From: Alphaproteobacteria bacterium
GTDB lineage: Bacteria; Pseudomonadota; Alphaproteobacteria; GM7ARS4; G965262615
Direction of reading: 5' to 3'
DNA length: 64,000 bases
NCBI GenBank assembly: GCA_965262615.1
Contig: OZ253545.1
Location: forward strand, 32,001-96,000
Under the pieces are notes generated by a model that saw only the letters and a program-made list of their open reading frames with translations, did not search any database and was not told the origin of the DNA. Made by a program: the position numbers and the translations under genes. Within the stretch, counting starts at the first letter, position 1, and every line of letters begins with the position of its first letter. Shown piece by piece: positions 4,049 through 18,683 of this stretch.

Positions 4049-5809
4049 TTACAAGGGACCGAGACCGTCAAAGGTGTAACCAAGTCCAAGAGAGATGCGG
4101 TTGTCATCAAACCCACCGTAATTGAGGATTCTGCCGTCTTGCACACCGCCACGCCCAAGCACCGTCACATTGCGTTCTTCATGGTCCAGATAAGTCCAAT
4201 CCATGCGCATGAAGAGATTGTCATAAAGGACACTTTCCACCCCCAAGCCAATGCGATAACTGCCCAATCTGTATTTGTCCACCTCCACAGACGAACTACC
4301 AAGAGTCGCATCGGCGATACTATTACAGGGATTTGTAACATCAGCATTGGATGTGAAATTGGAACTGTGATTCTCGTTTTCAAACTGCGTCCACCCATAA
4401 CCGCCCTTGAGATAAACAAGGGTCTGTGGCGTGAAGCGATAGCCCAACCGTCCCAAAAGGGCAACATCAGAGTGGCGTTTGAAAACATCGCTCCTGACAG
4501 TACAGTTATTAACCGCTGATTGTCCTGCTCCCGTTGTCGCACCCGGCGTTAAACCGTAGTTTTTCGCCACTTCACTCTCAGTGGGGCTACCGAACTCAAT
4601 TTCGCTTCCCAAATAGATGCCATCCAATTGGGATCTTTCAAAAACACGCCCCATGTCAAACCCATAGCCAACGAAACCTGCCCAGCCAAAGAAGTCCTGA
4701 CCAAAATCATTGCTCTTGTTTGTCCTGGTATTGCTCGTGCCAGAGGTGGTTCTCCAATTTGTCGAATCGGACTCGTTGTAAGCGGCATTGCTGTGGTGGA
4801 AGAGTGCTCCAGCATAGACACCATCACCGACCACGCCGCCTCTGACCTTCATGTTCTTGTGCTCGCCCTCACTGCCCGGATAGAAGGTAAAGCCCACCTG
4901 CAATGAATATGTGCGAGCGGCATACTGACGGTTATCACCTGTTCCTGTCGCCAAAACTGCGTCGCGACTGCCCGAATCACGAGTATCCAGCGCGTCCAGA
5001 GAATCATCGTAATCTCTGACAAGCCAGCCAAAGCGCAAGGCACTGCGATCACCAATGGCGATTTCCGAGCCGAAACCAAAGTTCCAAGCGTGGGCAACAT
5101 CACGAGAACCACGCACCTGAGAAGAACCACGGCTTGCTATGTCATAGAATCCCATGCTGTAGCCCACCTGCGTATAGAACAAATGATAAGGCTGCACCAA
5201 GTAACCCATGCGGGTGGAAAAATCCAAATCATAATCCATATTAACCGTGCGCGACCTCATATCAGAAGTTGGGGTCACACCCGCAGGGGTCGTGCTCGTC
5301 CCCGAATAGGTCTGTTGATCATCAGTATAGCTGTATCTTTTCTTGGTGATGGATGCGCCAAACTCACCTCCCAGATAGAAGCCGTGACGCTCAAACACTT
5401 CACCAACTCCCAGAAACATACCAAATCCACTGTTGTCACTAAAGGCGTTGAGGCTGCCATCACCCGCCGCTTGCGTAGCATTACCGGCAGCAGAACTATT
5501 TCGTTCCATTCTGCTGGCGTTATCCCGAACGACACCGCTGGAATTTTGCAACAGGAATCCCAAATAGGGACCCTCAAACATATAGCTGCGAGAGATGATG
5601 CGTCCTCTGCGTATGTCGCGAACTTCCGGCTCGAAATCCTCATCAGCAAATTCAAAGGTGGTGTCTTCAAATTCGTCATAATACTCTTCTTCGTCTCCGA
5701 CATCGGCAAACGATTGAGACACACTCAACGACACCGCCAAGAGAATCATCACCAACAAACGAAGGTGACCATCGGTATCCCTTTTTAAGAAATTAGCAAG
5801 CATTGACAT
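4049..5809 (-). CDS. Outer-membrane protein with two tandem Omp25/RopB-like beta-barrel domains
   Basis: Signal peptide (...SQSFA) and an acidic N-terminal segment. Domain 1 runs FEGPYLG...SLQVGFTF; domain 2 runs DGVYAG...RLGYRFTPQTLVYLKGGY...DNRISLGLGYTF. Confidence 0.8.
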   Translation of the reverse strand: MSMLANFLKRDTDGHLRLLVMILLAVSLSVSQSFADVGDEEEYYDEFEDTTFEFADEDFEPEVRDIRRGRIISRSYMFEGPYLGFLLQNSSGVVRDNASRMERNSSAAGNATQAAGDGSLNAFSDNSGFGMFLGVGEVFERHGFYLGGEFGASITKKRYSYTDDQQTYSGTSTTPAGVTPTSDMRSRTVNMDYDLDFSTRMGYLVQPYHLFYTQVGYSMGFYDIASRGSSQVRGSRDVAHAWNFGFGSEIAIGDRSALRFGWLVRDYDDSLDALDTRDSGSRDAVLATGTGDNRQYAARTYSLQVGFTFYPGSEGEHKNMKVRGGVVGDGVYAGALFHHSNAAYNESDSTNWRTTSGTSNTRTNKSNDFGQDFFGWAGFVGYGFDMGRVFERSQLDGIYLGSEIEFGSPTESEVAKNYGLTPGATTGAGQSAVNNCTVRSDVFKRHSDVALLGRLGYRFTPQTLVYLKGGYGWTQFENENHSSNFTSNADVTNPCNSIADATLGSSSVEVDKYRLGSYRIGLGVESVLYDNLFMRMDWTYLDHEERNVTVLGRGGVQDGRILNYGGFDDNRISLGLGYTFDGLGPL

Positions 5810-6000: not shown

Positions 6001-7368
6001 TTATAAGCCCCACTGGTCAAACGCATAAATGACGGCAAGACTAATGCGATTTTCTTGAATGTTATGCAGGGCTCTGTTGTCACCAATGGTGAAATCCAGC
6101 ACATCGGCATAAGTCCAATCCAATCGGGCGGTGATGTTGTCGTAGACGACGCTTTCAATTCCCGTTCCCACAGAAAATCCGTTGACAAAAGTTTTAGCCG
6201 AAGTGGCACTGCTGCCCCCCTGTTCATACTCCAAGCGCACCCAGTTGTAGCCGCCGCGCGCATACACCATCGTTGCCGGCGTATACAGATATCCAATCCG
6301 CACACCCCAATCAATGGCAACGGGACGCTTGATCTCAGAATCACTGCCCTCATAGACAGTGTGAGAGACCAAGTTCGTGTCAAGACGCAATTCAGTTCCC
6401 AAGTAAATGTCTCTTCGTCCCTTGAAGAAGCGATTGGATCCGATTCCCACAATGCCGCCCACACTGCCGCCTCTCATGCCGACACTATCGCTACTGGCGG
6501 CTGTGTTGCCATCACGCAAATCAGCGGCACTGCTGTATTGACCCTTCACCCCCACATAGACACCATTGAACACAACGCGATTCACCTTCATTCGGCGAGC
6601 ATCAGGACGCTCCTCAAAGCGATAGACCAACCCCACCCGAGAGGTAAAGCTGCGGGGTTTGAGTTCGGTGCGCGGATTATATGCTCCCAAAGACAATTCA
6701 TAATAATCTCGCATCGCCCAATCCAAACGGAAGAAGGCGTTGCCGCCGAGGGACGCCTCCATGCCCAAGCCCACATGATACCCATGCAACAACTGAGCCT
6801 TCTCCAGCGTGATGGTATCGCCTTGCCTGTAATTATAATTAAAGTTGCTGGCACTGTATCCGCCCTGCAGGAACATGAGCGCGCCGTCATGAGAGGCGTA
6901 GGATAATCTCATTCCCACATCAAAGTCGTAGGTGTTTTCCAGATTGTAGAAATCAGTCGCCGACCGAGAAACATGCGTACGCCGCTTAATGATAGAAACC
7001 GACGATGCACCGCCCACATAAAAGTGATGACCATTCTTTGCCATGACCATGTAATCGTATCCGCCATAGAAAGTTCCTCCCATGACGCTCTGCAATCCGC
7101 GATCCTCCGCGCCGTTTGCGCTGGTCTCATTGGAGTATCCCGTTCCGTAGGCGAGTCCAGCCCCGCCGTGACTGCCCTCAAAATAACGAGACTCAGGTTG
7201 CAATGACACACGATCCATTGGCATGGTGTCCGATGGCATGGCATCGGTTTGCATGGTGTCATATGACATGTCGTCATATTGGGCGTGGGCACTGCTCGCC
7301 ATCACACCGCCAAGAGCAAAGCTCAGAACGGCAGCAACGAAGCAAAAATAAGGTGTTTTCATTGTCAT
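6001..7368 (-). CDS. Second outer-membrane protein with two tandem Omp25/RopB-like beta-barrel domains (paralog of 4049-5809)
   Basis: Signal peptide (...SSAHA). Domain 1 runs FEGSHGG...RVGLVYRF; domain 2 runs FNGVYVG...RIGYLYTPATMVYARGGY...ENRISLAVIYAF. Confidence 0.8.
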   Translation of the reverse strand: MTMKTPYFCFVAAVLSFALGGVMASSAHAQYDDMSYDTMQTDAMPSDTMPMDRVSLQPESRYFEGSHGGAGLAYGTGYSNETSANGAEDRGLQSVMGGTFYGGYDYMVMAKNGHHFYVGGASSVSIIKRRTHVSRSATDFYNLENTYDFDVGMRLSYASHDGALMFLQGGYSASNFNYNYRQGDTITLEKAQLLHGYHVGLGMEASLGGNAFFRLDWAMRDYYELSLGAYNPRTELKPRSFTSRVGLVYRFEERPDARRMKVNRVVFNGVYVGVKGQYSSAADLRDGNTAASSDSVGMRGGSVGGIVGIGSNRFFKGRRDIYLGTELRLDTNLVSHTVYEGSDSEIKRPVAIDWGVRIGYLYTPATMVYARGGYNWVRLEYEQGGSSATSAKTFVNGFSVGTGIESVVYDNITARLDWTYADVLDFTIGDNRALHNIQENRISLAVIYAFDQWGL

Positions 7369-7575: not shown

Positions 7576-8538
7576 TTATACTTTAATCTGGGGCGATATA
7601 TTGAGTGAGCCTTTTTCATTGCTCTTGATATAGCCCGTGTCCTTGCTGTCAAAAATGGCTTTGGTGAGTTCCAGCAAAATCAAGTTCTTCACCTCTTTTT
7701 CATTGTCGCTATCGGTCGCCATCACAGAATCCAGTATTGCCCTGTGAGAATTCAGGGCATTTTGTCTCTGCCTGTTGAGATTGTATAAGTGCCGTTCCGC
7801 CGCATGACCCTTAGAAAAATGGGCAATCAAAAATATCCCCAGAGACAAGACAAAAAATTTAAGCAAGGCATTGCTGACAAACATCCCATAATCTACTTGA
7901 CCATCTTTTGGAAAAGATGTGCCATCAACATAGAAGGCAACGGCAAGAATTGCCGTAACAACAATACAGCCTATCATAGTCCGAAAATTTTTATGGGCTC
8001 TTCTTTTATTCTCCTTTGCCTCATCCCCAAAGAAAGTGCCGAATTTTTCTCCCTCTTCTTTCTGCTTTTCTGTTTGAGCACTTTGAAGAAGCTCCTCTGC
8101 TTTTTTCACATTGTCCAAGCCACCCTTGAGGGCATCTAAAAGTTTTTTCGCCTGTTCTTCAGTATTCTTTAGCTTTTCATCCTCATGAGAGCCAATAGCT
8201 CGCATATATTCTCTGACCGTAGAAGTGCGTTGAATGATGTCACTTTTCTTGTTTTTAATCTTGCTGATATAATTTTCCTTTTCTGCCGTATCTCCAAAAT
8301 TTCTCACATCTTGAGCAAAACCAAAAAAATTTTGCAATAGATTTTCCATTTCTTGTACACGGTTATCGGGCAAATCGGCAAAATTTGGATGGAATAAAAT
8401 ATCATCAAATACCTTTTTGATTTGAGCAAAATCCTTTTCTGCTCCTTTTAAATTATGGTTGCCCAAGTCCTCACGGAGCAACGCGTTCCACGCCAATTGC
8501 TCGTATGCTTTTTTTATATCGGGATTAAGTTCAGCCAT
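7576..8538 (-). CDS. Hypothetical protein: coiled-coil N-terminus, two predicted TM helices, cytoplasmic C-terminal domain
   Basis: 320 aa, AT-rich. Hydrophobic segments MIGCIVVTAILAVAFYV and LLKFFVLSLGIFLIAHF; K/E-rich helical region. Confidence 0.8.
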   Translation of the reverse strand: MAELNPDIKKAYEQLAWNALLREDLGNHNLKGAEKDFAQIKKVFDDILFHPNFADLPDNRVQEMENLLQNFFGFAQDVRNFGDTAEKENYISKIKNKKSDIIQRTSTVREYMRAIGSHEDEKLKNTEEQAKKLLDALKGGLDNVKKAEELLQSAQTEKQKEEGEKFGTFFGDEAKENKRRAHKNFRTMIGCIVVTAILAVAFYVDGTSFPKDGQVDYGMFVSNALLKFFVLSLGIFLIAHFSKGHAAERHLYNLNRQRQNALNSHRAILDSVMATDSDNEKEVKNLILLELTKAIFDSKDTGYIKSNEKGSLNISPQIKV

Positions 8539-8576
8539 CCTGACACCTTGAGGAATTTTACCCCTTCGCTCTCACA

Positions 8577-8819
8577 TCAATGCTTCTTGTCACGCGGTGG
8601 GAATGGGTCATTGCCAGGGGCAACCGTGTCTGAATCCCGCCATCTGCCATATTTATTTTGTGTCACAACTTCGCCGCCGCCATTATTTTCGACTATTTCC
8701 TTTGCAGCTTCTTGGGCTTGTGCTTGCGTTGAGTGGATACTAGAGGCTCGCTGTGCATTAGGTGCTTTAACAGCCCAGCCATCTGGGTGTTTGACGACAT
8801 ATCTATTATTACTTGACAT
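8577..8819 (-). CDS. DUF2188-family small protein
   Basis: YVVKHPDGWAVKAPNAQRASSIHSTQAQA...GEVVTQNKYGRWRDSDT...GNDPFPPRD. An AGGAG RBS precedes the ATG at 8819. Confidence 0.85.
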   Translation of the reverse strand: MSSNNRYVVKHPDGWAVKAPNAQRASSIHSTQAQAQEAAKEIVENNGGGEVVTQNKYGRWRDSDTVAPGNDPFPPRDKKH

Positions 8820-8939
8820 TGCTTTGCTCCTTGATTTTGGAGTTTGGAAAAATGGTCTATAAGACACAAGCCTTGCAGACATCGACACCATTTATGGTAG
8901 CCAAAATATAAAAAATGTCAATATATTGTGGAAAATAAA

Positions 8940-8968
8940 TTTTGCGGTGTGAATTTTACACCGCAAAA
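8940..8968. terminator. Inverted repeat / probable terminator just outside the att site
   Basis: TTTTGCGGTGT-N7-ACACCGCAAAA, a perfect 11-bp stem ~20 bp downstream of the tRNA 3'-end copy. Confidence 0.65.
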
Positions 8969-8986
8969 CTCAACGCTTCATCTTTT

Positions 8987-9039
8987 TGGCGTAGAGGGGG
9001 GGGGGATTCGAACCCCTGATACGGCTCAAAACCGTATAA
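8987..9039 (-). repeat. att site: degenerate duplicate of the tRNA-Ser 3' end
   Basis: Matches 18591-18640 (TGGCGGAGAG...GATTCGAACCCCCGATACGGCTCAAAACCGTATAA) with 2 substitutions and the G run expanded from 7 to 10. Confidence 0.93.
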
Positions 9040-9775
9040 TGTGTTCCTCTCTGTTATAGACGCGTTGAATGTTGGTGAGAAAAAGATTGCCGGTCTTACT
9101 GACGGCTCTGGCTTCATCTTGAATGTGAATGTTGATTTGAAAGTCATTTCTCCAGTTGCGTCCTTCAAAGCCGTTGTGAGGGATGACGGGATCATTCAAA
9201 AATATAGCGCGTCCTTCAAAATCATCGCGCAGGCGATCCAGCACGATGATATTGGGCGCAATGAGCAAGAAATTGCGAGCGAGATTTGAATTGTCCTCGT
9301 AGGTTTTGTGAAAGAAGCTCCAAGCGATGGCGAGGCTCATGGTTTTGGTCTTGCCGCTGCCTGTTGCCATTTTGACAACCAATCTGCGCCAATGCTCTGG
9401 AAACATACCAGCTGACACCGCCCCTGAGCTGTCAAAACGCATGAGGTCGTATTTGTCTTTGAATTCAATCACCTCATGCAGATAAATGATGGTTTCTATG
9501 GCTTCTCTTTGAGCAAAATAGTATTGAAAAAGCGAGCCATCCTCTTGAGGGTGGTCGGTTGCAAACCACCATGTGAGAAGGGCGCGGCTGGTGGCGGAGC
9601 ATCCCTCGTAGTTTGTGTCACGCCATTTTTTGACGGCGGTGCGTAATTGCTCCACCAGAGGCGGCAGCAGACAATCATACCCCATGCTTTTCAGCCCATC
9701 AGGCGTGGGATACCAACGCGTTGACGGGTCAACAATGTCATGAGGCGATAAAGGAAAATCCTTACCAAGAGGCAT
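9026..9775 (-). pseudogene. res: Truncated type III restriction endonuclease Res subunit (N-terminal 249 aa only)
   Basis: YYFAQREAIET, Walker A KMATGSGKT, LLIAPNIIVLDRL and LTNIQRV. The ORF runs into the att repeat and stops before the DEAH box, helicase C-terminal and nuclease domains. Confidence 0.88.
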
Positions 9776-9802
9776 AATCCTGTCCTTTCTTTTGGTCTGT
9801 TT

Positions 9803-12031
9803 TCATATCCTTACCTCAATTACGGTCATGGAGTCGTTGCCGAATATGTCTACCACTTTGATGGCGACTTTGCGAGTGCCTGAGTCGCATTCTATGGGGG
9901 TGGTGATGAATTCCAGTTGTTTGTTTTTCTTGGTGCGGAAGCTTTGCCATTCGTTTTCAAAGATGAAGTTTCCTGTGGTCATGACATCCATCTCTGTGCC
10001 GTCCTTGCCATCGGTGAGGATGACTTCGGGCTTGCTTTCGTAGTTGAAATCCACCGACCAGTAGTCAATCCAGTCCGACCATTTTTTGGTGATGGTTTGC
10101 TGGGAACAAATGCCGTTGGTGTCCTTGCTGATTTTAACAAGCTGCCCGCGCTCCAGTATGATGGTGCTGCCGCCGTTTTTGAGGTTGGCGATGGCGGTCT
10201 CCATGGTGCCCTCATTGTAGGCGACCGAAAACCCAGTGAGTTCTATTGCCAGCATGGTTTTTTTGCCCTTGCCTGTGATGTGAGGCTTGGCTTCAATGTA
10301 GGCGATGTCGTGAAACACCACCTGATTGCGCTCCACGGCTTTTTTGTCAAACACATCACGGGGGATGTATTTGAGAGCCAGCATCACCCCTTGTTGCTTG
10401 GCTTCTTCTTGAGCGTGGGTGTTGAGGGACATTTCAAACTCAAAGGCAAGAATATCCACATTGATGATGCCGCGCCGTTTGCATTCCGCCACCACCTCAT
10501 CCACAAAATGACCCGTGACCGGCAGATTGATGGGACCCACCACCACCATGTGATTGCCCTTTTTGCCATGAAACATGGCGTCCGATGCAATGGACTCGGC
10601 GGCATAAGCTCGCAAAATGAGCCTGAGATAGTCCTGTTCTTTGACGCGCCATTGTTGAGCCTGTTGGTCATCATTGAGGTTGGTGTTGATGCCCACATAG
10701 TGCTGTCGCTCATACTTGCCCAGATTGAGAATCTCAAACGCGCGATAGTCCATGCCGTTCTTTTTGAGCTGTCGCTGCACATTGATCATGCGCTTTTTGG
10801 TGGTGTGAATGGCGAATTTGCCCAAGTCGGAGCAGATCCACTTGCGTCCCAGCTTTTCCGCCACCGCCGCGGTCGTCCCCGAACCACAAAAAAAGTCAGC
10901 GACAATATCGCCTTCTTTTGTACTAATATTTAAAATCCTCTCTAAAAGGTCTTCAGAATTTTCTGTAGGATATTTTGTTGTAAAAGAATATCCCGGAATA
11001 TCTGTCCAATTTGTATCTAAAGCCATTGTATCAGATGGCTTTACATAATACTCAAGACTATTTAGCTTCTCATTGAACCTCAATGTACCTTCGTCTATCA
11101 TTCTTTCCATGCGCTTTTGATTAAACTTAAAATGTTTCCCCGACGGCGGATAAAAAACCCGCCCAAACAAATTTCTTTCTCTTGGCTTCCTTTCTCCATC
11201 ACTATCATCCGTTCTTCTCCAATAGCCTTCTCTTATCTTGTCTCTTTTTTTGTCAATATTTATGAATTGAGAATCCTTTGATTGGAAATATACGAAAAGC
11301 GTATCTGTCGCGACAGGCAGAGAAAGTCTTCCTTGAGAAGTGACATTTTTTTTAATTCTATTTACCAGAATTTCTGACTGGAAATGTTCTTTTCCAAAAA
11401 CTTGGTCGAGCATAACCTTGACATAGTGTCCCCAGTGATGGTCAATTCTTAAAAAGAAAATTCCATCATTTGAAAGCATATCTTTCATTAATTGAACACG
11501 CTCAAAAAGCATACTTAAAAAAGTGTTCCCTTGGTTGCCCCATGTATTTCTATATGCAAATTCCTCCAGAATGGATGGGCTTTTGACAAATGGCTCGTTA
11601 GAATTATCATCACCAATATCTACCTTAATAGAGTAATCCAAACCAGCACTAAATGGTGGGTCAATATAGATGAGTTTGATGCCTCCTGCCTCCTCAATCG
11701 TGCGGCGCGTGTTGCCGCTTTTGAGGGATGACAAAATGAGTCTATTATCGCCCCAGATGAGTTTGTTTGCCCAGCCGCTGATTTGTCTGCCGCTGTGGGC
11801 ATCAAACAATTCCCCTTGCTGATGCCGCACCTCTTCGCTACGGGGTTCATCCACCTGTTCAATGGTTTGAAAGGGCAGCACCACATTGGTGACATCCTTG
11901 GTCTTGCCATTCCACACCAGCTCCACCTCTCGCTGGTCACCAAACAACAAAAACCGATACTTCTCGTCCAACGCCTTGCCATCCTCAAGCAAGCGGGTGA
12001 TATCTCTGATTTCATTGTCGCTCAAACGCAT
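9803..12031 (-). CDS. mod: Type III R-M modification subunit (N6-adenine DNA methyltransferase)
   Basis: NKLIWGDN, motif IV IYIDPPF, motif I ADFFCGSGTTAAVAEKLGRKWI, and C-terminal IAIKVVDIFGND-type motif (VAIKVVDIFGND). Lies directly upstream of res. Start at 12031 preferred over 12079. Confidence 0.93.
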   Translation of the reverse strand: MRLSDNEIRDITRLLEDGKALDEKYRFLLFGDQREVELVWNGKTKDVTNVVLPFQTIEQVDEPRSEEVRHQQGELFDAHSGRQISGWANKLIWGDNRLILSSLKSGNTRRTIEEAGGIKLIYIDPPFSAGLDYSIKVDIGDDNSNEPFVKSPSILEEFAYRNTWGNQGNTFLSMLFERVQLMKDMLSNDGIFFLRIDHHWGHYVKVMLDQVFGKEHFQSEILVNRIKKNVTSQGRLSLPVATDTLFVYFQSKDSQFINIDKKRDKIREGYWRRTDDSDGERKPRERNLFGRVFYPPSGKHFKFNQKRMERMIDEGTLRFNEKLNSLEYYVKPSDTMALDTNWTDIPGYSFTTKYPTENSEDLLERILNISTKEGDIVADFFCGSGTTAAVAEKLGRKWICSDLGKFAIHTTKKRMINVQRQLKKNGMDYRAFEILNLGKYERQHYVGINTNLNDDQQAQQWRVKEQDYLRLILRAYAAESIASDAMFHGKKGNHMVVVGPINLPVTGHFVDEVVAECKRRGIINVDILAFEFEMSLNTHAQEEAKQQGVMLALKYIPRDVFDKKAVERNQVVFHDIAYIEAKPHITGKGKKTMLAIELTGFSVAYNEGTMETAIANLKNGGSTIILERGQLVKISKDTNGICSQQTITKKWSDWIDYWSVDFNYESKPEVILTDGKDGTEMDVMTTGNFIFENEWQSFRTKKNKQLEFITTPIECDSGTRKVAIKVVDIFGNDSMTVIEVRI

Positions 12032-12209
12032 CAGGGCATGATAAGCACATCGGCACGGAATGAAAAGCCAGAAAAACATTATATTTACTTATAATGAGTT
12101 AAGAGTTACCAAAAAATCTTTGCTCGTTGAATAGCTCTGTCAGGTAAGGTAGATTATTCTCAAGGAGGGTAGTTCTGTCCTATTCTGGACAATCAGAAGC
12201 AGAACTATA

Positions 12210-14222
12210 ATGGTTGTGCCAGTGGGTTGGATAAGTCAGCTAATAGGGAAATTTACGGGGTGGTTTTGTCGTGTCCTGAAAAGATTCACTGACCCTTCTT
12301 CTGATAAAAACGAAAACTCATCGCCTGATGCCTCTACGCCAATTCCACCTCAACTACACCCCAACACTCACCCGCCAATTTTGCCAGAACATCAATCTTC
12401 CACCGAAGATAATCAAAGCGAGCAAAACCAAAAAGTCAAAGGAAATCATCCCGCAGACATTCCAGGGCGACGGAATCCGAAGCACACAGAATCAGAGCCC
12501 GAAGCTAAGGAAAAAGAATCGTCATCCTTCCGTCCTCAATTGATGTGTCGGAGAAAGGCTGGTGCTTGGCAGGTTATTGTGTCTGGGAATGAGGAGTGTC
12601 CCATCAAAGGGGTGCGTCTTGGGAATCAAGATTTGGAGGTCATCAATCAAGAATGTCCCATAGACTCACTGGAGGGACATCTTGTCACTTGGTCTGAAAA
12701 TGGGGATAAACGCGAAGTCGCGTTATTCAATGGCGAGCCTCTCATTTTCAAATTTTCAAAAAACTGGAAGGGCACGGAGATTTCTCAAATCACGAACGGT
12801 CATTTCATCGTCATCGCTCCTGCCGAATGGACAAGGGTGGGCGACAGGCGAGACGCTGGTGGGGCGGAGCCTTGTAAAGATGAAAAATTCAGGGCGCATT
12901 TTTTCTCTCGGAATAAAAATGATTCGGATGAGGAAATCAAAGGTTTTGAAGGACAGCCGCCCCTTCCTGTTGGTTTGAGCATAGAATGGGATGGCGAGAG
13001 AGTCTTTGATGACTCGGCGGACGAAGGCATCCTGTTCGTTGGAGATGCTCCAAAGCCCGTATTGTCACCAGATATTGCGAGCGCACGAGTTGTAGAGGAA
13101 ACGGAAGATGGTGGCGGTTGGGGGGAGAACTTTATTCCAAGTGATGAGAAACTTGCAAAAGTTTTGAACGGCAGAGAGGGACATTTTTCTCTTCGCATTT
13201 ACGCGCGTGGATCAAGGCGTGAGCTTGATAGCAAGCAGTTTCGTTATATGAGTCAATTGAAAGAAATCCGTGTTGATGATGAGTCATATACAGCCGCCAC
13301 CGCTATCGCGCCCACATCTGCAGGATATTCACCAACGGAAGTGCAATTCATTGCCAGAGACGGCAGCAGGCTGACTCCGAAATCATTACCCGAATTTTCT
13401 CATGCGAAGCTGGTGGGGGATGTCATTAAAGTTCCACCACACCATAAAGCAGATCGCATTGTTTGTGCTCTTGAGACAAAGACCAATGATGTGCAGATTG
13501 TGTTACAGCTGCCAAAAATATGGTGGCGATTGGAGAGCGATGGCGATGATGCGGGTGAATGGAGTGACAAACCCATCACCATGACACGAGAGGAATTTCG
13601 TGATCATGCTCGCGATGAGATAAAGATTTCAATCTTATCCAAGCGATGCAAATTGGTGCATACGGGATTCAACGACAAGCGGGATAAACAATACTCCCGC
13701 AAAGAGCAGGATGAGTGCATTCAAATTCCCTTGTATGCATTTGATGACAGGCTGCCAACTGAGCCAGAATCTCGTGCCCCTCTTCAATTCAATGTTGAAT
13801 GGATGGGAACAGTCACGACACTCATTCAGTTTGTTTCGCGACAAGGTGCAAGTGAAACAAAGTCGCTCCCTCGCACCGTAAAGCCAAGTTCCAAAAATGA
13901 AGTAAAGGGCGTTAAAAGAAACTACGGTTCTGATTCGTTACGAGATACGAGTAGAAAAAAGCCGCCCACTCTTCCAAAAGTCAGGCTCATCAAGCCAGAA
14001 GCCACCGCCGTTTGGCTGGTGGAGAATAGTTCTCTCACTTTTAAGCAGATTGCGGATTTTGTTGACATGCATGTTCTGGAGATTCAGGCAATTGCGGATG
14101 GCGAAGCTCATGCCGACCTTATAGGTGAAGACCCCGTTAAAGAATTGCATCAGCTCACCAGAGAAGAGATTGAACGCTGTGAAAAAGACCCAGAAGCTTC
14201 TCTCAGACTTAAAGAAATTTAG
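12210..14222 (+). CDS. Hypothetical 670-aa protein with a C-terminal DUF1013/TrcR-like module; partner of the downstream helicase
   Basis: Pro/Gln-rich disordered N-terminus, beta-rich core and basic linker. Ends LIKPEATAVWLVENSSLTFKQIADFVDMHVLEIQAIADGE...DPV...QLTREEIERCEKDPEASLRL, which matches the DUF1013 N-terminal consensus as recalled. Confidence 0.8.
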   Translation: MVVPVGWISQLIGKFTGWFCRVLKRFTDPSSDKNENSSPDASTPIPPQLHPNTHPPILPEHQSSTEDNQSEQNQKVKGNHPADIPGRRNPKHTESEPEAKEKESSSFRPQLMCRRKAGAWQVIVSGNEECPIKGVRLGNQDLEVINQECPIDSLEGHLVTWSENGDKREVALFNGEPLIFKFSKNWKGTEISQITNGHFIVIAPAEWTRVGDRRDAGGAEPCKDEKFRAHFFSRNKNDSDEEIKGFEGQPPLPVGLSIEWDGERVFDDSADEGILFVGDAPKPVLSPDIASARVVEETEDGGGWGENFIPSDEKLAKVLNGREGHFSLRIYARGSRRELDSKQFRYMSQLKEIRVDDESYTAATAIAPTSAGYSPTEVQFIARDGSRLTPKSLPEFSHAKLVGDVIKVPPHHKADRIVCALETKTNDVQIVLQLPKIWWRLESDGDDAGEWSDKPITMTREEFRDHARDEIKISILSKRCKLVHTGFNDKRDKQYSRKEQDECIQIPLYAFDDRLPTEPESRAPLQFNVEWMGTVTTLIQFVSRQGASETKSLPRTVKPSSKNEVKGVKRNYGSDSLRDTSRKKPPTLPKVRLIKPEATAVWLVENSSLTFKQIADFVDMHVLEIQAIADGEAHADLIGEDPVKELHQLTREEIERCEKDPEASLRLKEI

Positions 14223-14273
14223 TCATTGACGAATGGGAGAAGAGGGCTCACCCTATATCCGTTGAGGAGCGGC

Positions 14274-17200
14274 ATGATGGCAAACGAAGTTGATATAAAG
14301 CATCTCAAGCAATGGACGAAGAGAATTCACCAACGCTATGTGGATTATTTGACCACCTCATTCTTTTTCTCAGACCCTGATTTGCGCCGATCGTTTCGTG
14401 ATGCTCTTGGCAAAGAGGGAAGGCTGCAGAAAGAGGCTTCAGAAGAACATTTTGAATTCAAAAAGGGAATGCACGCTCATCAATTGGCGGAAAAAATTTT
14501 TGCAGGCAAAAATGTGAGTGATCTTAAGCACGCATTAATTGGTGATGCGTTGTATGACCATCAAGAACAAGCCATCAAAAATGCCTTTGCGAAGCAAAAG
14601 AATTTGGTTGTTGCTACTGGGACTGCCAGTGGCAAGACCGAGAGTTTTCTTTATCCCATTTTGTTTGAATTATTTCGCCAGCACCTTGCGGGAGATTTGA
14701 AAAATCCTGGGGTGCGCGCCATGATTCTGTATCCCATGAATGCACTGGCGAACGACCAGCGCGAACGCTTGGGAGAAATTTGCAAGAAATTGAAAGAGGC
14801 AGGCTCTCAGTTCAAACCGACATTTGGGCAATACATTGGGCAAACTCCAGAGGACGAAAAAAACGAGTGGCGCAATGCGTCCGAGCGCGAAAAAAATCGC
14901 TTAGATGGGGAACTGGTTTTTCGTAAAGAAATGCGTGACACACCGCCTCACATTTTATTGACCAATTATTCAATGCTGGAATATTTGCTCATTCGCCCCA
15001 AGGATACTCCTCTGTTTGATGGTGACAGAGGCGCGCATTGGCAGTTTCTCGTTCTGGATGAGGCGCATCAGTATCGCGGTGCCAAGGGGATGGAAATCGG
15101 CATGCTGATGCGGCGTCTCAAGCAGCGATTGCGTGACGGGGGGCGGCAAGATTCTTTTCGCTGCATCGCCACCAGTGCCACCATGTCATCGCGCGAAAAT
15201 CAAGAAGACAGAAAGGCGATTGCCGAATTCGCCAAAAAACTTTTTGACGAGCCTTTTGCCGAGGATGACATCATATTTGGCAAAAGGGAAAAGGTTAAAG
15301 ATGAAAGCACGCCGAGCCGCCATCATGCCTTTTTGCGTGGGCTTCAGGGTGCGTTTCTTGTCCATAAGAATGGCAAGGACACTGTGGCACTCAATCGCAA
15401 GGATGAGGACGACAGCAAAGAAAAAAGCGAACCTCTTGAGATCGCGCTGTGCCGCGAATGCGGACAACATTATTATGTCGGCAAAGAACAAGATGGCAAA
15501 CTGAGAGAAGGAATTCGCGATCCCAGTCATGAAGAATTCGGCGTGGATTACTATCTGCCAGATGAAACGGGGAAAGGAGTTTTATGTCGGCAATGTGGGG
15601 CTCTTGCGAAGTCATCATGCGATTGCACAAATTCGGCGTTCATTGCCGTCAAGAAATGCAAATCTCACAAAGAGCATCCCGACGAATTGGAGAAGTGTGA
15701 GGCTTGCGGCTATGGGCGTGGCAGCATTGGTGACCCTGTGCGAGAGATTGTGCATGGCTCGGATGGACCGGGCACTGTGATCGCCACCACTGTGCATGAG
15801 GTGCTACACGAATTTCTTCCCGAAGACAAACGCAAAATTTTGGCTTTTGCCGACAGTCGCCAGCGAGCGGCATTCTTTGCTTGGTATATTGAGGATTCCT
15901 ACAGGAATATTCTTCACCGCAATCTCATTTACAGAGCGATGAACTCCGAAGACATTGCGGATGAAGGTTTAACCATCAACGACTTGACCCATTGCGTGTA
16001 TAAATTGTGGGAAAAGATTGGACTCTTTGAAAAACCAAGTGCAAGTAAGGCGGAAAAATCCCGTGAAGTGTCAGAATCCGTTCTGCGCGAGGCGGTGACT
16101 GATGATAAAAGGAGGTCTTTGAGTGGTGTTGGCTTGGTGAAATGGTCTGTCAAATTACACCCGAATTTGAAGCTGCCCCCCGAAATGCTTCAACCGCCGT
16201 GGAATTTCAGCGAGGATGATGCTTACGCTCTGATCCGTTATCTGCTGGACAATATGCGCTCGCATCAAAGAGCCATAAGTTTGCCAGAAGATAGTAAAAC
16301 CGCAAAATGGGCGGATATATCACCGTATGAGCAGAAGCCAAAGGGGAAGACACTTGTGCAATGGTGTAACACAAAAAATACCATTGTTGGTTGGTTTCTT
16401 CACAGAATTCTTGACGCAAAAGAAAGTGGGCTATCGGATGAAGAGAAGCACTCTTGTGCCGCAAAACTCCTGCGCAAGATTTGGTATGAATTGCGAGATT
16501 TACCAGAAAATGATCCTATGCTCATGCGTATATCGCACCGTAGCGACGCGTTTCTTCTGAATTGTGGCTGGGTGCGGGTAAAGCTGGCAAAGCCTGATGA
16601 AATTTGGCGTTGTGAAGACTGCACCACGCTCAGTAGCCATAACATTCGCGATGTTTGTCCGCGCAAGGGGTGTGGTGGCATGTTGAAACCTGTTGATGAG
16701 GATAAGCAGAAGGTTCTTGAAGGAAATCACTATCGCAAGCTCTATAAAAACGCTCATCTGCCGCCGAAACTGCGCGCGAAGGAACACACCGCTCAGATTG
16801 AGGCGAATGAGGCGGCTCAAAGACAGAGCGAATTCAAGGATGGTAAAATTCATCTGCTGAGTTCCTCCACCACATTTGAGTTGGGTGTTGATCTTGGCGA
16901 TTTGGATTGTGTTTTTCTGCGTAATGTTCCGCCAGAGCCGTTCAATTATGTGCAACGGGCTGGTCGTGCGGGGCGAAGAGATTCTCCGGGTCTGGTCTTG
17001 ACCTATTGCGACCGCAATCCGCATGATCTCTATCATTACGAAGACCCCGAACGCATCATGAAAGGTGAGGTGCGTCCGCCACAGCTGCACATGACCAACC
17101 ATAAGATTGTATCACGCCACATGGTGGCTGCCGTCTTATCTGAATTTTTTAGGGCACATCCAGAACGGTTTGAAAGTGTGGAGAGCTTTGTTGACGATTG

Positions 17201-18563
17201 GGAAGGCATGGAAGACCCGCAAGTGGCAAGTGACATTCGTCAATTTTGCAAAAAGAACAGCCAATTGAAAGAATCTTTGTGTCGCATCGTGGATGAGAAT
17301 ATGCACAAGAAAGTCGGGCTCAAGGATGATGCGTGGATTGATGAAATTGCGGGCAAAGACAGTCGTCTTGTTAAGGCGGTGAAGGAGGTTTTGAACGACC
17401 ATAAAAAACTGGAGGAAATTCTTGGAAAACTCAGTAAAGAAAAAAAATATCAAGAGTGCGACCAAATAGTGAAGCGTCAAAACACCATCAAAGGTGAGAG
17501 GGTTCTTGATTTTCTTTCACGCAAAGCGGTCATTCCCAAATACGGCTTTCCTGTTGATGTTGTTGAGCTTGACATCCATTCTGGTGATAAGAATGTTTCG
17601 CTCCAGCGCGACCTATCTCAGGCAATTGGCGAATATGCGGCGGGCAGCAAGGTGGTGGCTGATAAAAAGGAATGGATTCCCTACGGCATTAAGACAATTG
17701 CTGGTAAAAGGTGGAAGGAGCAGTATTACCACTACACCAATGCTCGCGACTTTAAGAATTGGAGCGAAGGTGAAAGCGAAGACGAAAAAGACAAACAGGG
17801 GCGTCAATATCTCATTCCAGAGTTTGGTTTTGTCACTGAGTGGTTCAAAAAAGCTCCAGAGCCACGGAGAGGGGCGCGCCGTCTCTACACGACGCGTCCT
17901 TTCTTTCCTGGTTTCAAGGATCAAAAAGAGCCAGAGTCCAAAAATATAGCGGGTGTGAATGTCACTCCCGCCACCCCTGGCACTCTGGTGATCCTTTGTG
18001 AAGGAAGAAAAAGAAATGGTTTTTATATTTGTCCTGATTGCGGTACTCAAAGAGCAGAGCGCGAGATTCCCCACAAAACACCGTGGGGTTCAACATGTAG
18101 GACACCGCCGCGTCCTTTTTCCCTCGGTCACGAATTGGAGACCGATGTTGTGTGTCTTCATTTTCCGAATCTGTGTGATGAATGGGAAGCTTATTCCGTT
18201 GCCTATGCGATGTTGTTGGGTGCGGCGGATAGATTGGGCGTTCCCGATAATGATTTGAATGTCACCATCACGGGAGGTAAAGGTAAAGACGAGTACGCAG
18301 TCGTACTTTATGACAATGTTCCAGGCGGAGCAGGTCTGGTGGCGCAGCTTGAGAAAGAAGATGTTTTTTGTGATATCCTTAAGAGTGCCGAAGCGCGTGT
18401 TCAAGGTCAATGTGGCTGTGATTCAAGTTGTTACGGTTGTCTTCGAAGCTATCGCAATCAGTTCGCACATGCAGACCTCAATCGGCAACGGGCAAAGGAA
18501 ATTCTCGAAAGTTGTGTGGGACAAATGGTTGGACAGGCAAGCTTGCCTTCCCTCAAAACATAG
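14274..18563 (+). CDS. Large DEAD/DEAH-box helicase with Cys clusters and C-terminal DUF1998 (Druantia DruE / MrfA-related)
   Basis: Q motif LYDHQ, Walker A ATGTASGKTE, YPMNALANDQ, TNYSMLE, LDEAH, ATSAT, FADSRQRAA, EHTAQ, STTFELGVDLG, YVQRAGRAGRR, LYDNVPGGAG and CGCDSSCYGCLRSYRNQ. GAGGAG RBS before the ATG at 14274. Confidence 0.92.
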   Translation: MMANEVDIKHLKQWTKRIHQRYVDYLTTSFFFSDPDLRRSFRDALGKEGRLQKEASEEHFEFKKGMHAHQLAEKIFAGKNVSDLKHALIGDALYDHQEQAIKNAFAKQKNLVVATGTASGKTESFLYPILFELFRQHLAGDLKNPGVRAMILYPMNALANDQRERLGEICKKLKEAGSQFKPTFGQYIGQTPEDEKNEWRNASEREKNRLDGELVFRKEMRDTPPHILLTNYSMLEYLLIRPKDTPLFDGDRGAHWQFLVLDEAHQYRGAKGMEIGMLMRRLKQRLRDGGRQDSFRCIATSATMSSRENQEDRKAIAEFAKKLFDEPFAEDDIIFGKREKVKDESTPSRHHAFLRGLQGAFLVHKNGKDTVALNRKDEDDSKEKSEPLEIALCRECGQHYYVGKEQDGKLREGIRDPSHEEFGVDYYLPDETGKGVLCRQCGALAKSSCDCTNSAFIAVKKCKSHKEHPDELEKCEACGYGRGSIGDPVREIVHGSDGPGTVIATTVHEVLHEFLPEDKRKILAFADSRQRAAFFAWYIEDSYRNILHRNLIYRAMNSEDIADEGLTINDLTHCVYKLWEKIGLFEKPSASKAEKSREVSESVLREAVTDDKRRSLSGVGLVKWSVKLHPNLKLPPEMLQPPWNFSEDDAYALIRYLLDNMRSHQRAISLPEDSKTAKWADISPYEQKPKGKTLVQWCNTKNTIVGWFLHRILDAKESGLSDEEKHSCAAKLLRKIWYELRDLPENDPMLMRISHRSDAFLLNCGWVRVKLAKPDEIWRCEDCTTLSSHNIRDVCPRKGCGGMLKPVDEDKQKVLEGNHYRKLYKNAHLPPKLRAKEHTAQIEANEAAQRQSEFKDGKIHLLSSSTTFELGVDLGDLDCVFLRNVPPEPFNYVQRAGRAGRRDSPGLVLTYCDRNPHDLYHYEDPERIMKGEVRPPQLHMTNHKIVSRHMVAAVLSEFFRAHPERFESVESFVDDWEGMEDPQVASDIRQFCKKNSQLKESLCRIVDENMHKKVGLKDDAWIDEIAGKDSRLVKAVKEVLNDHKKLEEILGKLSKEKKYQECDQIVKRQNTIKGERVLDFLSRKAVIPKYGFPVDVVELDIHSGDKNVSLQRDLSQAIGEYAAGSKVVADKKEWIPYGIKTIAGKRWKEQYYHYTNARDFKNWSEGESEDEKDKQGRQYLIPEFGFVTEWFKKAPEPRRGARRLYTTRPFFPGFKDQKEPESKNIAGVNVTPATPGTLVILCEGRKRNGFYICPDCGTQRAEREIPHKTPWGSTCRTPPRPFSLGHELETDVVCLHFPNLCDEWEAYSVAYAMLLGAADRLGVPDNDLNVTITGGKGKDEYAVVLYDNVPGGAGLVAQLEKEDVFCDILKSAEARVQGQCGCDSSCYGCLRSYRNQFAHADLNRQRAKEILESCVGQMVGQASLPSLKT

Positions 18564-18590: not shown

Positions 18591-18683
18591 TGGCGGAGAG
18601 GGGGGGATTCGAACCCCCGATACGGCTCAAAACCGTATAACGGATTAGCAATCCGCCGCTTTCGACCACTCAGCCACCTCTCC
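18591..18683 (-). tRNA. tRNA-Ser (anticodon GCT), CCA encoded; island integration site
   Basis: GGAGAGG...CCTCTCC-GCCA; anticodon arm GCGGA-TTGCTAA-TCCGT; long variable arm; GGTTCGAATCC. Confidence 0.97.

Follow-up and report, generated by a model that had tools for sequence, protein, structure and literature searches.

The locus raises the question of why a protein encoded directly upstream of a predicted defense helicase should end in a piece of a transcription-associated protein of its own host. In the window, that is, the whole 64,000-nucleotide stretch of DNA analyzed, an open reading frame at 12210-14222 on the plus strand encodes a 670-aa protein (P0002), and positions 13959-14222 encode its aa 584-670, with the stop codon at the end. 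The initial annotation read these last residues as the first module of TrcR (DUF1013), fused to the partner of a helicase, and translation reproduced the peptide that it quoted. The features of the protein and its surroundings are listed below.

12210-14222, plus strand: partner gene of DruE, 670 aa (P0002); open reading frame and translation
12225-12281, plus strand: predicted N-terminal amphipathic helix, aa 6-24; AF2 model, consensus in alignments A3 and A4
12282-12521, plus strand: predicted disordered region rich in proline and acidic residues, aa 25-104; pLDDT <50 for residues 23-104
12522-13844, plus strand: conserved, predicted all-beta core of Ig-like sandwiches in series, aa 105-545; pLDDT mostly 80-95, Foldseek
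13845-13982, plus strand: predicted basic disordered linker, aa 546-591, net charge +8; AF2 model, charge count
13983-14219, plus strand: TrcR/DUF1013 N-module tip, aa 592-670; Pfam, BLASTP against the host TrcR
13809-14214, plus strand: linker and tip cassette, exchanged as a whole in a second allele from the same samples; contig joint 13808->14215
14226-18563, plus strand: DruE helicase, 1445 aa as listed (TTG start); PADLOC, Pfam
18591-18683, minus strand: tRNA-Ser(gct), right edge of the low-GC island; tRNA call, GC profile
7576-12079, minus strand: rest of the island, with a 320-aa open reading frame and the three genes that follow
8577-8891, minus strand: DUF2188/PDC-S16 gene
9026-9775, minus strand: truncated type III Res
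9803-12079, minus strand: type III Mod

The Tip-Bearing Protein Is the Variable Partner of a DruE Helicase

The helicase matched the PADLOC families DruE1 (7.1e-170) and DruE3 (3.9e-143), the DruE3 alignment ending at profile position 1676 of 2055. Its Pfam domains were DEAD, Helicase_C, and MZB, and no nuclease domain was found in it by Pfam. The true start of DruE may be the ATG pair at 14274, since homologues align only from residue 17-27 on. A DruE orthologue lay directly downstream of the partner in 25 of 26 loci from other genomes, the 26th ending at a contig end, and no third conserved gene was found around these 26 loci. In the same loci, the partner cores were 35-45% identical, compared with 53-60% for full-length DruE. 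These results show that the protein is the variable component paired with a DruE that is Druantia III-like and has no nuclease. With the DruE match and the position in a low-GC island beside tRNA-Ser, its first description as the partner of a predicted defense helicase proved correct.

The AF2 model of the partner shows, from the N-terminus on, a helix, a disordered linker, an array of Ig-like beta domains, a basic linker, and the C-terminal tip. The N-terminal helix was found family-wide (A3 and A4), and a basic motif is conserved inside the disordered region, where P81, I84, and R88 are invariant in A3. One relative, P0074, has a DUF4389 domain at its N-terminal end. The Foldseek search with the partner model returned only generic tandem Ig-like arrays, with a TM of about 0.1. 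P0002 matched no PADLOC family, DruH included, even at E ≤ 10. The ESM Atlas gave nothing usable for the core, the core had no match in 72,556 plasmid records when the whole protein was used in tblastn, and the partner had none in phage records.

The Tip Is the N Module of TrcR

The tip alone matched the Pfam family TrcR (PF06242) with an E value of 3.4e-12 and 47 bits, against a gathering cut-off of 22.2. With the whole protein, the match was at 2.4e-10 and 41.1 bits, and residues 623-669 were placed on profile positions 1-46 of 139, while the host's own TrcR matched positions 1-134. In BLASTP against the genome's own 188-aa TrcR (L001:1402-1968), 50 of 79 residues of the tip were identical (63%, E 9e-33) over host residues 2-79. 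This comparison covers more because the Pfam model begins after the first two helices of TrcR. The full protein has two homologous modules, N and C, as seen in a second BLASTP HSP and in the structure model; the tip ends where the first module ends, and the basic linker and the C module are absent. The tip is therefore a fragment of TrcR that lacks the two-module architecture of the full protein. It keeps 24 of the 26 invariant or nearly invariant positions of the N module, as counted by reading against the list.

The tblastn matches of the whole protein in the plasmid records were confined to aa 588-669. They came from 7 records, all alphaproteobacterial, with 46-51% identity, and where an annotated feature lay beneath the match (n = 3), it was a DUF1013 gene. 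The Pfam score, the identity to the host TrcR, and these DUF1013 matches bear out the proposal that the tip corresponds to the first module of TrcR. Among proteins of 368-1173 aa, the TrcR N module was found only in the partner family and in one 384-aa hexapeptide-repeat protein.

TrcR itself was present in 40 of 41 sampled genomes of the class. It is described as associated with RNA polymerase (RNAP) in two articles that cite Delaby et al. 2021 (PMC10754441, PMC12864828), and Caulobacter trcR deletion mutants are reported there to be viable (PMC12864828). The description of TrcR as a host core protein needs one correction: it is widely conserved, but, with viable deletion mutants reported, it is not strictly essential.

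The N module of TrcR was acidic in 40 of 40 genomes (median net charge -5, range -10 to -2), whereas the linker and the C module were basic (medians +4 and +3). This makes the N module the likelier half to bind protein. The tip is acidic as well, with a net charge of -9 and a pI of 4.6 for the 75 residues aligned to host residues 5-78. This charge argues against the tip being a generic nucleic-acid-binding end, a reading that we consider improbable. In its favor, the TrcR model contains helix-turn-helix-like helices with a weak likeness to the DNA-binding domains of DeoR, MntR, and MarR, but none of the Foldseek matches of the model was significant (zero at E ≤ 0.001). A sequence search found no solved structure of TrcR. 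[quoted passage not shown]

The Fusion Is Real, Old, and Polymorphic

The fusion could be an assembly chimera, or the decaying and functionless remnant of a duplicated trcR, and its rarity fits such a view: it was present in only 1 of the 401 genomes sampled from the class. However, the junction was bridged in four public sequencing runs from 2 studies (X1, X2, X4, and X5). Contigs without a single difference covered 13779-14269 in X1 and X2, 13918-14269 in X4, and 13710-14237 in X5. Moreover, two independent metagenome proteins, P0004 and P0005, bear the identical tip on different N-termini, and the possibility of a chimera can be dropped. The frame is open, and the 24 conserved positions are kept despite saturated synonymous sites. 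We regard a relic or an artifact as extremely improbable.

The synonymous saturation was measured against the host trcR over 79 codons, where pS was 0.77 and pN 0.24. Since synonymous sites are saturated, the capture is old. The rare states S18 and H45 are common to the tip and the host TrcR and occurred in 0 of 39 other genomes, which indicates that the tip came from the host lineage; V29, also common to both, was found in 3 of the 39, two of them of the same order. In the tree, the four fused tips grouped (support 80/84) with the host, with one genome of the same order, and with two more. The capture from the host lineage, as first suggested, is thus upheld by the host-only states and by the grouping with the genome's own trcR. 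These results show that in this genome the slot contains the acidic TrcR N module of the host lineage itself, copied long ago and maintained by selection. We hold the anatomy and origin of partner and tip, as described, with high confidence.

A second allele was found in contigs of X2 and X4, in which the joint 13808->14215 replaces the linker and tip cassette alone. In X1, there was a loose end at 13808, and its translation, made by eye, resembles the allele P0006. The linker and tip form one of two hypervariable regions of the partner protein; in the core, aa 270-424 are hypervariable between alleles. The tips of P0006-P0008 had only 18-65% identity to that of P0002 per 40-column segment, whereas P0006 and P0007 showed 95-100% identity over aa 115-270. 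The P0006-P0008 tips lay on long branches of the tree, and the ADGE loop, nearly invariant in TrcR, was absent from P0007 and P0008.

The C-Terminal Slot Holds Exchangeable Modules

The first protein search gave 24 homologues of the partner, and 734 representatives were found at E ≤ 1e-30. The tips were counted over 163 relatives, with the representatives taken from the best 150 of the 734. The tip was eL13-like in 129 relatives, TrcR-like in 6, and ribosomal S5 in 6, and the rest were others. Further tips of the family are the RNAP subunit omega, MacB_PCD, a basic coiled coil, and several unnamed types. These results show that the C-terminal slot is a swappable module. The annotation's mention of relatives with other ends, such as an L13e-like one, proved correct, and the range found is wider than that.

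The eL13-like tips scored around the Pfam cut-off. PF01294 was matched at E ≤ 0.01 by 11 of 25 proteins in one set and by 16 of 23 in another, with about 45 of the 180 profile positions covered. In genome scans, the scores were 22.8-26 bits against a gathering score of 24.9, and 3 of 5 were above it. By phmmer, the tip matched solved eL13 over 46 aa with an E value of 0.0034. The ESM Atlas gave leads under 0.9 only, which were small archaeal PF01294 clusters and a 76-aa bacterial cluster. In all five host genomes searched, the fused tip was the sole match to PF01294. Pfam returned nothing for the tips of types P0130, P0080, P0062, P0110, P0126, P0172, and P0019. A HARE-HTH or NusA-like domain was not confirmed among the unnamed tips, the nearest match being HHH_5, whose 17.3 bits fell short of the cut-off. 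Neither the P0080-type nor the coiled-coil tips had paralogues in their own genomes.

Omega is a structural subunit of RNAP and binds beta-prime. In L015, the slot holds the whole host omega in frame; 96 of 96 aa are identical, and the 4 differences between the open reading frames are all synonymous. The most common tips are basic: the pI is 10.6-11.9 for the eL13-like and 9.0-10.8 for the S5 tips, and the coiled coil has a net charge of +19. That most tips resemble basic RNA or DNA binders (eL13-like, S5, the basic coiled coil, and the weak HhH match) supports a nucleic-acid-binding end, while the omega tip, which is acidic (net -10) and not a nucleic-acid binder, speaks against it.

The tip might also be a dominant-negative effector, in analogy to the exchange of C-terminal cassettes in polymorphic toxins. 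Once activated, the half-TrcR, the diverged S5, or the bulky omega fusion would interfere with transcription or translation in the host and so poison it. This has been considered because the DruE found here has no C-terminal nuclease region, and the C-terminal cassette polymorphism resembles the logic of polymorphic toxins (PMC3482391). However, an exact host copy of omega should be benign, and none of the tips matched a toxin family. Furthermore, nuclease-less helicases are reported to be frequent in the Druantia III-like branch (10.1101/2025.09.15.676423). An effector role therefore appears highly improbable to us.

Possible Roles of the Tip

Two readings of the tip remain ahead of the others. 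The one we favor, tentatively, is docking onto the network of RNAP and TrcR. The tip would perform the TrcR N module's own job, presumably protein-protein docking onto RNAP, and the docked tip would bring DruE, along with the Ig-like sensor array, to transcription complexes, as an anchor or a guard. Across the family, the slot would be an anchoring module. Most members would use basic, nucleic-acid-binding tips (eL13-like, S5, basic coiled coil) as anchors, and a few lineages would have swapped in pieces of their own RNAP-associated proteins, the TrcR N module here and the whole omega in L015. Since unrelated tip folds stand beside a conserved DruE, the tip is probably an input or address rather than the surface that couples to DruE. 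The stronger divergence of the partner than of DruE fits the sensor role proposed for DruH (10.64898/2026.05.12.724681).

Some observations count against docking. Allelic diversity within one population is not predicted by pure docking onto an invariant host machine, and no bacterial docking site is known for the eL13-like tips. The MacB_PCD and P0080-type tips fit neither RNAP nor nucleic-acid binding, which counts against anchoring.

The other reading is an integrated bait, which we regard as possible and rather unlikely. The tip would mimic TrcR, and a phage protein aimed at TrcR or RNAP would bind or modify it and thereby switch on the partner and DruE. The host-derived modules (TrcR N, omega) are consistent with this, as are the exchange of the linker and tip cassette between alleles in the same samples, its place in one of the two hypervariable regions, and the long branches of the P0006-P0008 tips. 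A decoy also requires only a fragment of TrcR. Canonical DruH is a proposed sensor of phage proteins and is reported to show positive selection (10.64898/2026.05.12.724681), and a decoy has been suggested for a bacterial NLR-related protein, though with no homologous host protein (PMC11702601).

Against the bait, a search of 50,697 phage records gave no homologue of TrcR, and phage anti-defense proteins could instead explain the diversity of tips. We know of no phage factor that targets TrcR, omega, or S5. A family-wide bait is further disfavored by the most common tip (129 of 163), since the eL13-like module has no bacterial protein to mimic, PF01294 occurring only in the fused tip in the five genomes. 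We tentatively favor docking over phage bait.

Relation to Known Systems

The operon resembles Druantia type III (DruH-DruE) in several ways: it has two genes, the first encoding a large, variable partner and the second a DruE helicase (DEAD, Helicase_C, MZB/DUF1998); Ig-like domains abound in the partner, which diverges more than DruE does; and the setting is a defense island. The nearest branch is that of the nuclease-less "Type III-like / III-B" YprA helicases. Several features set it apart: the likeness of the partner to DruH, which it does not match in PADLOC, is one of Ig-like arrays in general. With 670 aa, the partner is shorter and lacks the globular N domain and the C-terminal ssDNA-binding domain of DruH; at its end, a flexible linker carries the swappable tip. 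The DruE of Druantia type III-A has a PLD nuclease end, unlike the one here. A Clostridium plasmid encodes another DruE without a nuclease, whose partner is different again: it is unrelated (hhalign probability 0.05) and has no PADLOC match. The partner and DruE are a new variant of Druantia III-like systems. We found no description of such tips in the literature, and in a survey of YprA helicases the terms TrcR, DUF1013, L13e, ribosomal, and decoy do not occur.

With TrcR (PF06242), the tip shares homology to residues 2-79 and nearly all conserved positions; here the first module alone is fused to a 590-aa predicted defense protein. Polymorphic toxin systems likewise combine a conserved body with a hypervariable C-terminal module exchanged by recombination between conserved flanks, but the modules here are not toxins, there are no immunity genes, and the context is a helicase defense operon. 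As in plant NLRs with integrated domains, a presumed immune sensor carries a variable host-derived domain that differs between members at one position. Homology to a host protein was found for the TrcR N module, for omega in L015, and for S5 in 6 relatives. In contrast to the plant proteins, the partner has no NLR or STAND ATPase, and the tip of most members has no host counterpart; no pathogen effector is known to us for these tips.

Work on the mechanisms of Druantia is still at an early stage, and this family offers a way into them: it is large (734 representatives), and its tip slot is defined, exchanged by recombination, and legible in its contents from sequence. The slot contains a copy of an RNAP-associated host protein in two lineages or more. 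If the tips are anchors, a defense helicase would be addressed to the transcription machinery. On the less probable bait reading, this would be the first family of prokaryotic immune sensors with true integrated decoys, in which the captured TrcR N module, whole omega, and S5 would bait hijackers of transcription or translation and trigger DruE. Each tip would then name the host node attacked by the phages of that lineage, and the principle of the integrated decoy would extend from plants to bacteria.

The C-Terminal Tip of the DruE Partner Is the First Module of TrcR

The sequence at 13959-14222 (+) translates into the peptide described in the initial annotation, is closed by a stop codon, and corresponds to aa 584-670, the C-terminus of the 670-aa protein encoded by the ORF 12210-14222 (the partner, P0002). 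This tip had been assigned initially to the N-terminal half of TrcR/DUF1013, and the Pfam search bore this out, with an E-value of 3.4e-12 and 47 bits for the tip alone, and 2.4e-10 and 41.1 bits for the whole partner (cut-off 22.2 bits). The last 47 residues covered profile positions 1-46 of 139. The window's genome, a single 1.54-Mb contig, also encodes a full-length TrcR of its own, ~137 kb from the fusion, which scored 146.8 bits over positions 1-134. BLASTP aligned the tip with residues 2-79 of the host TrcR (50/79 identities, E 9e-33), and a second weak HSP showed that the two modules of TrcR form an internal repeat. The tip is thus the entire first module and contains none of the second, as had been claimed. 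When the whole partner was compared with plasmid records by tblastn, the matches were confined to aa 588-669, all 7 records hit were alphaproteobacterial, and where a match fell under an annotated feature (3 matches) that feature was a DUF1013 gene, which agrees independently, at the sequence level, with this identity. The sole other long protein found with a TrcR-like N module, P0173 (384 aa), also carries hexapeptide-repeat domains and may be a gene-call fusion.

The Fusion Is Real and the Tip Is Exchanged as a Cassette

An assembly chimera was checked for with contigs from public sequencing runs (X1, X2, X4, X5; two studies). Contigs without a single difference covered 13779-14269 (X1, X2), 13918-14269 (X4), and 13710-14237 (X5), together reaching from the core interior over linker and tip and on into the following gene. 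An identical tip was present on differing N-termini in P0004 and P0005, metagenome proteins of other contigs. The fusion of the tip to the partner is real.

Compared with the window's protein, its relative P0006 was 95-100% identical at aa 1-270, 40-72% at 270-424, and 18-50% in linker and tip, and for P0008 the mid-protein pattern was reversed; alleles also differ in the mid-core (aa 270-424), a second hypervariable block. In X2 and X4, which carry the window's allele, other contigs departed at 13808 and rejoined at 14215, with exactly the linker and tip replaced and the flanks conserved. The loose end of an X1 contig at 13808, translated by eye, resembled the P0006 allele. As this mosaic and the departing contigs show, linker and tip are swapped as a single cassette bounded by the conserved end of the core and the start of druE.

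Tip Types in the Partner Family

A swappable tip, including an L13e-like one, had been suggested initially, and tabulation of C-terminal domains yielded eL13-like, S5, TrcR, omega, MacB_PCD, and other types. Pfam assigned L13e to 11, S5_N plus S5_C to 5, and TrcR to 5 of the first 25 proteins, and L13e to 16 and RNA_pol_Rpb6 (omega) to 1 of 23 genome-locus proteins; MacB_PCD and a weak HhH match were further tips. For tail clustering, the best 150 of 734 representatives were pooled with the window's protein and the 24 close hits. Of 170 proteins scanned, 169 had the core; 163 were kept, each with a complete core followed by a tail of 40 aa or more, and 6 were excluded because the core was incomplete or the tail too short.

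Tip types among the 163 proteins kept (set including the best 150 of 734 representatives)
eL13-like: 129
TrcR-like: 6 (a count raised by the query's close relatives; P0004 alone is among the best 150)
S5: 6
Unnamed types: one with 3 proteins and three with 2 each
Tails ending inside an Ig-like domain (P0096, P0167): 2
Singletons: 11

The majority tip matched solved eL13 with an E-value of 0.0034 over 46 aa (phmmer), a putative likeness that is short, yet consistent. In all five host genomes searched, the fused tip was the sole match to PF01294.

Anatomy of the Partner and Its Genomic Setting

The AF2 model of the partner (mean pLDDT 68) comprised the following regions:
aa 6-24: helix
aa 25-104: disordered region
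aa 105-545: all-beta core, confident (pLDDT mostly 80-95)
aa 545-607: disordered basic linker (net +8 over aa 546-591)

The tip was poorly modelled because few alignment rows contain it. Foldseek matched the model solely to tandem Ig-like arrays. Canonical DruH, the variable partner in Druantia type III, is likewise described as organised around Ig-like subdomains (10.64898/2026.05.12.722862; 10.64898/2026.05.12.724681), with ssDNA bound via Ig5 and the C-terminal domain (10.64898/2026.05.12.722862). The partner itself matched no PADLOC family, DruH included, even at E<=10. Its disordered region holds a short basic motif that, like the amphipathic helix at the N-terminus, is conserved across phyla (12225-12473); the two could serve membrane association or as a docking peptide. 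In one relative, P0074, this end carries a DUF4389 domain.

Features near the partner
14226-18563: DruE helicase, next gene (PADLOC and Pfam)
9026-12079 (-): type III restriction-modification remnant; Mod apparently whole (758 aa), Res truncated to a 249-aa N-terminal ResIII piece
8577-8891 (-): small DUF2188 protein, PADLOC candidate family PDC-S16 (1.6e-21)
7576-8538: 320-aa ORF without family, adjoining the DUF2188 gene
4049-5809 and 6001-7368 (-): adjacent pair of outer-membrane beta-barrel paralogues, just beyond the island
End of the low-GC stretch: tRNA-Ser(gct)

The helicase is a DruE family member (DruE1 7.1e-170, DruE3 3.9e-143), whose alignment to the DruE3 profile stops at position 1676 of 2055. 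Pfam found DEAD, Helicase_C, and MZB domains in it and no nuclease domain. Nuclease-less helicases are likewise reported for the 'Druantia Type III-like' branch (10.1101/2025.09.15.676423). Homologues align from residue 17-27 on, the site of two ATG codons (14226-14277), so the TTG listed as the druE start probably lies too far upstream.

Partner and druE lie in a stretch of GC 0.40-0.51 between ~7500 and ~18500, compared with 0.53-0.58 beyond, which also contains the type III and DUF2188 genes. Of 401 genomes sampled from the class, the partner family was found in 2 (one a weak match), and a search of two same-order genomes did not find it; this makes the stretch an acquired island rather than a gene of the lineage.

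Partner and DruE Form a Conserved Two-Gene Module

A scan limited to a single genome for each species yielded 26 loci, spread over many phyla. A DruE orthologue lay directly downstream of the partner in 25, and the 26th ran off its contig; no third conserved gene was found around them. Partner cores shared 35-45% identity with the window's, compared with 53-60% for full-length DruE. Some loci had split DruE genes. At L011, L018, L020, and L025, druE or the partner was broken into two or more ORFs, so these copies may be decaying. The full HMMER scan returned 734 representatives at E<=1e-30 and 5094 at E<=0.001, the latter probably including proteins with only Ig-like or tip domains in common. 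On a Clostridium butyricum plasmid (L077:2768-5977), the partner of a nuclease-less DruE is a 1069-aa protein that matches no PADLOC family and is unrelated to the P0002 family; DruE partners thus appear more varied than catalogued DruH.

No published description of the tip architecture was found in the literature searched, and a YprA survey mentioned none of TrcR, DUF1013, L13e, ribosomal, or decoy. What is new here is a DruE partner with no sequence match to DruH and with an architecture not found in print; the DruE helicase itself is known.

Origin of the Tips

In another genome (locus L015), the entire rpoZ (omega) of the host occupies the tip slot in frame, with 96/96 aa identical. The DNA (L015:9763-10073 and L069:1408-1718) was identical at 304/311 positions, homology ran from 11 nt before the ATG to 9 nt past the stop, and the 4 differences within the ORF were all at synonymous third positions.

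The best match of the window's tip was its host TrcR (49/80). In a tree with the genome's own trcR, as initially suggested, the host fell into a group (80/84 support) with four fused tips, one same-order genome, and two others, with no resolution inside. S18 and H45 are common to tip and host TrcR alone (0/39 other genomes), and V29 occurs also in three others, two of the same order. Synonymous sites between tip and host trcR were saturated (pS 0.77), pN was 0.24, and by our own count against the conserved-position list the tip retained 24 of 26 conserved N-module positions. Judged from these sequence comparisons, it is an old capture kept under constraint, and a relic or artefact is highly improbable. 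Host origin is not general, since no paralogue of two other tip types was found in their own genomes.

Possible Function of the Tip

Because the folds of the tips are unrelated while DruE is conserved, we infer that the tip is an input or address, not a DruE-coupling surface. One rather unlikely reading, still the main rival to the one we prefer, is bait for phage factors. It fits the diversification of the tip at the population level and the infection-sensor role proposed for canonical DruH (10.64898/2026.05.12.724681), but the eL13-like majority tip mimics no bacterial protein. An integrated decoy has already been suggested for a bacterial protein related to NLRs, in that case with no homologous protein in the host (PMC11702601).

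The tips fall into two charge classes: eL13-like, S5, and coiled-coil tips are basic, and the acidic class comprises TrcR-N (net -9) and omega (net -10). In 40/40 genomes TrcR had an acidic N module, compared with a basic linker and C module, and from these charges TrcR-N is a predicted protein-binding module. Generic nucleic-acid binding by the tip is quite improbable, and a dominant-negative effector a little more so. Our preference, a tentative one, is that the slot anchors the partner: in most members the tip would bind nucleic acid, and the window's TrcR-N and the omega of L015 would bind the RNAP network.
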